This document shows, piece after piece, positions 32,273-32,416 of a stretch of 64,000 bases of DNA. The notes under the pieces were generated by a model, which worked only from the letters and a program-made list of their open reading frames with translations, was not told the origin of the DNA and searched no databases. The stretch is taken from the NCBI RefSeq assembly GCF_050920415.1, contig NZ_CP169309.1. The stretch is one strand, 5' to 3'. The position numbers and the translations under genes were made by a program. Each line of letters opens with the position of its first letter. The stretch's first letter is position 1. This DNA comes from Escherichia coli. GTDB taxonomy: Bacteria; Pseudomonadota; Gammaproteobacteria; Enterobacterales; Enterobacteriaceae.

Positions 32273-32416
32273 AAATCGCGGAAGGGATGAAAAAAACAGC
32301 GCCTGACGGCGCTGTGTCTGGCATGCCTGCAATCTGGGAAACCAGGGTAGAAAAAAACTTGCAGGCCATAACAGTATCTACATAATCTCTGCAATCTATT
32401 GAATTTGCATGTTTTT

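Follow-up and report, generated by a model that had tools for sequence, protein, structure and literature searches.

An insertion sequence between uspB and pitA of Escherichia coli carries a -35-like hexamer in its right end and a -10-like hexamer in its left end, both pointing in the same direction, which raises the question of which form of the element transcribes its guide RNA and recombinase. The window analysed here is a stretch of 64,000 nucleotides from contig NZ_CP169309.1 (assembly GCF_050920415.1), and all positions refer to its first letter. An original prediction, made from the letters of this window, had proposed that the two hexamers form a sigma70 promoter only when the ends of the element are joined. 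Expression would then be high only from an excised circle, with readthrough from uspB as a possible alternative in the chromosome.

The element in the window is IS621, an insertion sequence of the IS110 family. It occupies 31101-32379 on the plus strand (1279 bp including one CT core), as judged from end-to-end identity to annotated copies and from the empty site. Over its whole length it is 97-99.8% identical to loci annotated as ‘IS110-like element IS621 family transposase’, and nucleotide comparison finds IS621-like sequence in 2244 of 5426 complete E. coli genomes; the 64-kb window holds one copy only. The insertion point is a CT core within a REP sequence between uspB and pitA. When the window flanks are joined via a single CT they align without gaps to the uspB-pitA intergenic region (98.8-99% identity), and this empty site, with its single CT, is found in 1941 of the 5426 complete genomes, including ATCC 8739 and HS. 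The flanks of the copy read ...ATCAGGCCT / ACATAA..., with the CT core of the left junction at 31099-31100 (plus strand, read from the sequence) and no duplication beyond it, as in a site-specific insertion. The two ends agree at just 6 of 30 positions and so lack the terminal inverted repeats that are likewise missing from IS110 elements.

An intact copy of IS621 occupies the identical uspB-pitA site in strain MFDS1022581. The product of this allele (326 aa) matches 8WT6, a solved structure of the IS621 transposase (E = 8.5e-218), and contains both PF01548 (E = 1.8e-24) and PF02371 (E = 2.2e-25), matches that establish the IS110 family and IS621 identity. All five residues expected of an IS621 protein (D11, E60, D102, D105 and S241) are present in it. 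The corresponding gene of the window (31293-32272, plus strand) is disrupted by a 1-nt deletion and is read as two ORFs, 31293-31697 and 31682-32272. In the alignment, a GGG of intact copies is reduced to GG in the window (31654-31655), and the recombinase frame is lost after residue 121, leaving D11, E60, D102 and D105 before the break and S241 after it. None of the 5426 complete E. coli genomes contains an identical IS621 copy (the best match reaches 99.8%), and the deletion is therefore either private to the strain or a homopolymer sequencing error. If the frameshift is real, the window copy could still make bridge RNA and act as a donor, needing the enzyme from another copy. Any promoter formed by its ends could drive the bridge RNA but not a functional enzyme, because the recombinase is frameshifted.

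The -35 half of the putative promoter, TTGCAG (32359-32364, plus strand), is located 13 bp from the terminus of the right end and is followed by GCCATAACAGTAT (32365-32377) and then by CT (32378-32379). The left end begins after its CT (31099-31100) with TG (31101-31102), which precedes the -10 half, TATTAT (31103-31108, plus strand), 2 bp from the terminus. A re-reading of the sequence found all hexamer coordinates and distances from the termini in the original prediction to be exact. Joining the right end, CT and left end (RE-CT-LE) in silico yields TTGCAG, a 17-bp spacer (GCCATAACAGTATCTTG) and TATTAT, directed into the bridge RNA and the recombinase gene as had been proposed. The hexamers thus sit in opposite ends, come within 16-18 bp of each other only once the ends abut, and are aimed at the genes of the element, the arrangement of a circle-junction promoter (Pjunc). 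Numbered from the 5′ base of the 177-nt bridge RNA as published, TATTAT spans -12 to -7 and TTGCAG spans -35 to -30. An extended -10 was considered and rejected, as the TG stands at -14/-13 and not at -15/-14. Directly upstream of the -35, at positions -43 to -37, an A7 tract (32351-32357, plus strand) resembles a proximal UP-element subsite, and its sequence and placement suggest that it may serve as one.

The same nucleotides also make up the recombination substrate. The left donor half (ACAGTAT) together with the CT core (32371-32379, plus strand) constitutes most of the promoter spacer after joining, and TATTAT overlaps the right donor half (TGTAT, 31101-31105). The complete 14-bp donor site, ACAGTAT-CT-TGTAT, covers about -23 to -10 of Pjunc. 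In the published definition the donor comprises seven LD positions, the CT core and two RD programmable positions (PMC11208160).

Judged by consensus alone, Pjunc appears to be a weak to moderate promoter, a modest match with three of six positions in TTGCAG and five of six in TATTAT. The promoter scan tool requires at least four of six matches per hexamer, a threshold that TTGCAG would fail, and cannot scan joined sequence; its result of zero promoter-like sites in 30500-32700 is thus uninformative for the RE-CT-LE junction. Sites consisting of TTGnnn, a gap of 16-18 bp and a -10 matching at five or more of six positions occur 17 times in 128 kb (both strands of the window), or 1.3e-4 per position. 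A correctly oriented site of this kind spanning the junction would thus be expected in about 0.3% of cases. Published experiments on the same sequence and position-specific conservation in distant relatives support a promoter more strongly than does the match of a single sequence.

A promoter that is reconstituted across the core when the ends join has been described for IS621 (Durrant et al., 2024, Nature 630:984, PMC11208160), in which the -35 comes from the right end and the -10 from the left (PMC12288879). Small-RNA-seq of RE-LE plasmids detected an RNA of about 177 nt that starts at the predicted sigma70-like promoter (PMC11208160). When the RE-LE was shortened to a 22-bp donor without the -35 box, no recombination occurred unless bridge RNA was given in trans (PMC11208160). 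This rescue indicates that the -35 region is needed for expression of the RNA and not for recombination. From -39 to -1 the window junction matches the one published for IS621 base for base; the sole difference is T in place of A at +1. The half-promoters of the window are therefore those of the published IS621 Pjunc, already known and not new, and their detection is a correct rediscovery. The idea of a split sigma70 promoter formed on joining agrees with the published model, in which the same sequence was tested experimentally (PMC11208160).

Conservation was assessed in 71 diverse non-IS621 IS110 donor junctions, taken from Supplementary Data 1 of PMC11208160 and tabulated by column; these junctions are not phylogenetically independent. 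TTG stands at column 5, the counterpart of the -35 of IS621, in 34 of the 71 junctions and at every other column in 0-5. In 24 of 71, the hexamer in the -35 column matches TTGACA at five or six of six positions. TAnnnT occupies the -10 columns in 39, and 35 of the junctions contain TTGnnn, a gap of 16-18 bp and nAnnnT straddling the core. Both hexamers are thus conserved in relatives in a position-specific manner. Within E. coli, TTGCAG is identical in 15 of 16 IS621 copies (the BH100 copy has TTGCTG) and TATTAT is invariant in all aligned copies. An A6-A8 tract is kept in 16 of 16, and the bases directly upstream of the tract vary.

Such conservation would also be seen if the termini were maintained solely as recombination substrates and their likeness to a promoter were incidental. 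The most conserved columns of the family alignment (14-30) are those of the donor, the spacer is made of the left donor half and the core, and the single-sequence promoter match is modest. Conservation of the -10 is confounded with recombination because this hexamer overlaps the right donor half. The -35, however, falls outside the 11-14 bp donor that is recognised by the RNA, so that its conservation is not explained by recombination, and yet TTG recurs at that column in almost half of the diverse elements. A 22-bp donor without the -35 recombines normally with RNA in trans, a published rescue that already contradicts a purely substrate-based role, and RNA-seq transcripts begin at the predicted position (PMC11208160). 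It is thus highly improbable that the promoter likeness is a by-product of recombination.

The product that the junction promoter would transcribe first is the bridge RNA. Its gene in the window (31115-31292, plus strand) is 178 nt long and collinear with the published 177-nt IS621 bridge RNA, with the 5′ end 7 nt past the last base of TATTAT. Folding of this segment (-64.2 kcal/mol, z = -4.0) predicts a stem-loop at the 5′ end together with two domains that contain internal loops. IS110 elements, IS621 among them, characteristically have an extended non-coding left end from which a bridge RNA with loops for target and donor binding is made, and the window copy has such a left end. The lineage formed by the window, MFDS1022581 and LWY24 differs from canonical IS621 in two respects. 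Its bridge RNA is 178 rather than 177 nt long, owing to an additional base in the apical loop of the target-binding domain, and it has T instead of A at the published transcription start (31115), a substitution that could shift or weaken initiation. A search of 30000-33500 against Rfam 15 at E up to 1 retrieved no bridge-RNA family; it returned only partial REP-like matches (naRNA4 and ES036) and a spurious match to the L20 leader. One of the naRNA4 matches, at 32420-32456, is partial and scores 38.2 bits, below the gathering score; it corresponds to the second REP of the intergenic region.

While the element is integrated, the -10 of the left end is preceded by REP sequence. As the original prediction had stated, no obvious -35 is found at this site: the hexamers 15-19 bp upstream of TATTAT, where a -35 would stand, match TTGACA at zero to two of six positions. 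The nearest TTG-type hexamer, TTGCCT (31072-31077), was rejected as a -35 for the integrated state, as its spacer would be 25 bp. The activity of the integrated left end at this locus is thus inferred to be low. Other insertion sites differ in this regard. Among 13 distinct left flanks in the fetched loci, three (L003, L013 and L014) carry a REP variant, ...GCTGACGCGTCTTATCAGGCCT, that puts CTGACG, which matches TTGACA at four of six positions, at a spacing of exactly 17 bp before TATTAT. On the strength of this match, the left end may not be devoid of a promoter at every site of integration.

A circle must first be excised before its promoter can act, and transcription entering from the host is one source of basal expression to be weighed. 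The gene upstream of the left end, uspB (30660-30995, plus strand; assigned from its ORF and from the MFDS1022581 annotation of the same locus), is co-oriented with the element and is sigma-S-dependent. Readthrough from uspB across the REP might provide basal bridge RNA, and recombinase in intact copies, for a first excision, with Pjunc amplifying expression later. The terminator scan predicts no plus-strand terminator between the uspB stop (30995) and the left end (30996-31100). The first plus-strand terminator-like site downstream of the stop and outside coding sequence is found at 32482-32501, beyond the IS, and the T-run of the 31024-31049 hairpin is confined to the minus strand. Host-initiated transcription through IS492 is reportedly able to raise excision, a point in favour of readthrough. 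Co-orientation of the gene upstream of the left end is also seen at 10 of 11 distinct non-IS insertion sites, mostly since REP targets lie between convergent genes.

That last count reflects where REPs lie. Nine of the 11 sampled sites are between convergent genes, where either orientation of the element is co-oriented with its upstream gene, and no evidence of a preferred orientation relative to that gene was seen, as the two informative sites split 1:1. That a co-oriented gene almost always ends towards the left end (10/11) follows from the positions of REPs and not from an orientation preference.

Against efficient readthrough stands the structure of the left junction itself. The REP hairpin that forms the left half of the target (31074-31098, plus strand; about -13 kcal/mol) is followed at once by CUUGUAUUAU, the U-rich terminus of the IS. 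Across 31074-31112, the tail after the hairpin is CUUGUAUUAU when the IS is present and CUACAUAAUC in the empty site. By analogy with ISPpu10, in which this layout of hairpin and U-rich terminus was measured as a robust terminator (bioRxiv 10.64898/2026.03.19.712850), the junction is a possible attenuator of transcripts from uspB. The 5′ stem-loop of the IS621 RNA is likewise reported to lower downstream expression (bioRxiv 10.64898/2026.03.19.712850). A readthrough RNA would also bear a long 5′ extension, and the recombinase of the window copy is frameshifted anyway. The readthrough alternative of the original prediction thus keeps its plausibility, given the co-oriented gene and the lack of a predicted plus-strand terminator, but such transcription may be attenuated by the REP hairpin and U-rich terminus. 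Basal expression from uspB is possible, if somewhat doubtful, and would complement the junction promoter as an explanation rather than exclude it.

Basal expression in the integrated state, not strictly dependent on a circle, could also come from a weak promoter lying wholly within the left end. A relaxed scan yields two candidates. The first, TTGTAT-17-GAAAAT from 31100 (3/6 and 4/6), would start transcription inside the 5′ stem-loop; for the second, CTCCCA-18-TATCAT from 31218 (3/6 and 5/6), the start would fall within the donor-binding loop, ahead of the start codon. Precedents exist in the native promoter of ISPpu9 (PMC12288879) and in the weak native promoter in the bridge-RNA locus of ISPpu10 (bioRxiv 10.64898/2026.03.19.712850). 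Both candidates in the window are poor matches, however, one of them without TTG, and the plus strand of the IS contains zero sites that reach 4/6 in both hexamers. The published construct without the -35 box, moreover, gave no recombination in cis (PMC11208160). A functional internal promoter is therefore judged improbable.

The junction promoter remains the preferred source of bridge RNA, and the statement that needs qualification is that strong expression is confined to the circle. In the accessible literature we found no measurement that directly compares integrated with joined IS621 sequence for promoter activity, so that this statement rests on the published result of deleting the -35 and on the sequence. 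The word ‘only’ in the original prediction should be taken with caution, given the CTGACG that REP variants provide at other sites and a partner hexamer, CATAAT, that the right end meets in the flank of the window copy.

Many insertion sequences carry an outward-facing -35 in their ends that forms hybrid promoters with -10 hexamers of the flanking DNA. The right end of the window copy resembles them: CATAAT (32381-32386, plus strand), in the right flank, begins 16 bp after TTGCAG and creates an outward hybrid promoter-like site in the integrated state. This site, TTGCAG-16-CATAAT, matches the consensus as well as Pjunc does (3/6 and 5/6) and points to the terminator at 32482-32501. Unlike the outward -35 of those elements, it is not general among IS621 insertions and is here a candidate; among 12 other right-flank sequences in the fetched loci, one alone reaches even a 4/6 hexamer at that place, which makes the outward site specific to this insertion.

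The right-end half-promoter (A-tract and TTGCAG) may thus be active outward while the element is integrated, and binding of the bridge RNA-recombinase complex on the circle should compete with RNA polymerase, a form of negative feedback. Because the donor site covers about -23 to -10 of Pjunc, the synaptic complex and RNA polymerase should not be able to bind at the same time. Neither an outward promoter nor negative feedback was found reported for IS621 in the literature examined, and the two-part proposal is speculative and on present evidence unlikely. If the outward promoter is real, it would produce an RNA of about 110 nt that crosses the downstream REP and ends at the plus-strand terminator (32482-32501). 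Should the pitA terminator be the minus-strand hairpin at 31024-31049, as its layout suggests, the RNA would run antisense to the 3′ UTR of pitA.

The intergenic region holds further terminator-like structures. The segments 31024-31049 and 32482-32501 contain near-identical hairpins, GCGGGCCAGC(AAA)CTGACCCGC. The former has an A-run upstream, as would a minus-strand terminator (of pitA), and the latter a T-run downstream, as would a plus-strand terminator (of uspB). The convergent uspB and pitA appear to share overlapping 3′ UTRs that hold the REPs and now IS621. Within the right end, a terminator-like hairpin with a T7 run (32296-32315, minus strand), invariant in aligned copies, would stop antisense read-in from pitA, the convergent gene downstream.

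Junction formation was also sought in assembled genomes. A contiguous RE-CT-LE junction, whether from a tandem dimer or a circle, was found in none of 5426 E. coli assemblies, as expected for a transient circle. Apparent full-coverage junction matches were due either to a pair of IS621 copies separated by 92 bp in adjacent REPs or to a 192-bp internal-deletion derivative. The former arrangement occurs in SCZE5 (L003 395-800), in which two copies in the same orientation occupy neighbouring REPs, with 92 bp from the right end of one to the next left end and no joined junction. The latter is found in NWU_4, in the yaaX-ybiU intergenic region (L004 401-592) between REP target flanks. In this derivative, nt 1-76 of the left end run directly into the final 9 nt of the recombinase gene and the entire right end; both half-promoters are kept, and the donor-binding loop and the enzyme are lost. 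Another remnant, a solo left-end stub of 66-78 nt, is present in many E. coli genomes (H83-H92; OV24, L006 399-480). At the end of the OV24 stub, the flanking REP target (TTATCCGACCTAC) stands in place of the DNA that encodes the target-binding loop (GTATCGGGCCT, itself a copy of the target), so that the stub looks like the product of a deletion by recombination between the internal target mimic and the right junction.

Junction promoters are known from several related and unrelated elements, and the closest counterpart of the window is the IS621 Pjunc described in PMC11208160. The two are the same element, with the same hexamers, spacer, core and downstream bridge RNA and recombinase, and are identical from -39 to -1; the window differs in its T at +1, its 178-nt RNA and its frameshifted recombinase. 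ISPpu10 shares the right-end -35, the left-end -10, the CT core and a REP target, and its junction promoter has been measured as a strong hybrid promoter (PMC12288879; bioRxiv 10.64898/2026.03.19.712850). After integration, its REP hairpin also abuts the U-rich IS terminus. Unlike IS621, it is without the 5′ stem-loop in its RNA and has a measured weak native promoter, and its junction terminator has been measured, whereas that of IS621 at this site is predicted from the layout. ISPpu9, in contrast, has no junction promoter, and the device is thus not family-wide (PMC12288879).

The same device is known from the IS110/IS1111 members ISEc11 and ISEc21 (PMC11187229). As in IS492, a further IS110/IS1111 member, and in members of the IS3, IS21 and IS30 families, a strong promoter forms in them only when the ends abut in a circle (PMC12288879, PMC11187229). 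The ends of IS3, IS21 and IS30 elements differ in being inverted repeats bound by a DDE transposase, which the window IS621 lacks (6/30 agreement). In addition, the first product of IS621 is a guide RNA whose own donor site sits within the promoter spacer. Circles have been reported for IS110/IS1111 members generally, and IS621 is treated as circle-forming (PMC11208160, PMC12288879).

Taken together, the split hexamers of the window are very probably explained by the IS621 circle-junction promoter, the halves of which are apart in the chromosome and joined in the circle. In the chromosome, the half-promoters lie 1.25 kb apart, with the -10 facing a REP without a -35. Excision by the recombinase would produce a circle in which the CT core links the ends and a 17-bp spacer separates the hexamers. 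From there, sigma70 RNA polymerase would transcribe the bridge RNA and, further on, the recombinase gene. As the promoter is assembled in the circle, this integration-ready form would be the main producer of bridge RNA and enzyme. The anatomy of the window, its identity to the published promoter and the conservation of the hexamers were observed directly; the literature has demonstrated for IS621 that the joined ends drive transcription and require the -35 for it, and both would extend to the window copy by analogy.

The IS621 Pjunc is already in use in the engineering of bridge recombinases, and its confirmation here adds no new biology. A reading from sequence alone did, however, recover a real and experimentally supported mechanism. 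What drives the first excision, before any circle exists, is a question for which readthrough, a weak internal promoter and a -35-like sequence supplied by the REP were considered. The uspB-pitA locus is a reasonable setting for this question, with its co-oriented uspB, the lack of a predicted intervening terminator, and the hairpin and U-tract at the junction. For IS110 elements that carry it, the split promoter would act as a life-cycle switch that couples synthesis of both bridge RNA and recombinase to the circle, the excised form able to integrate.
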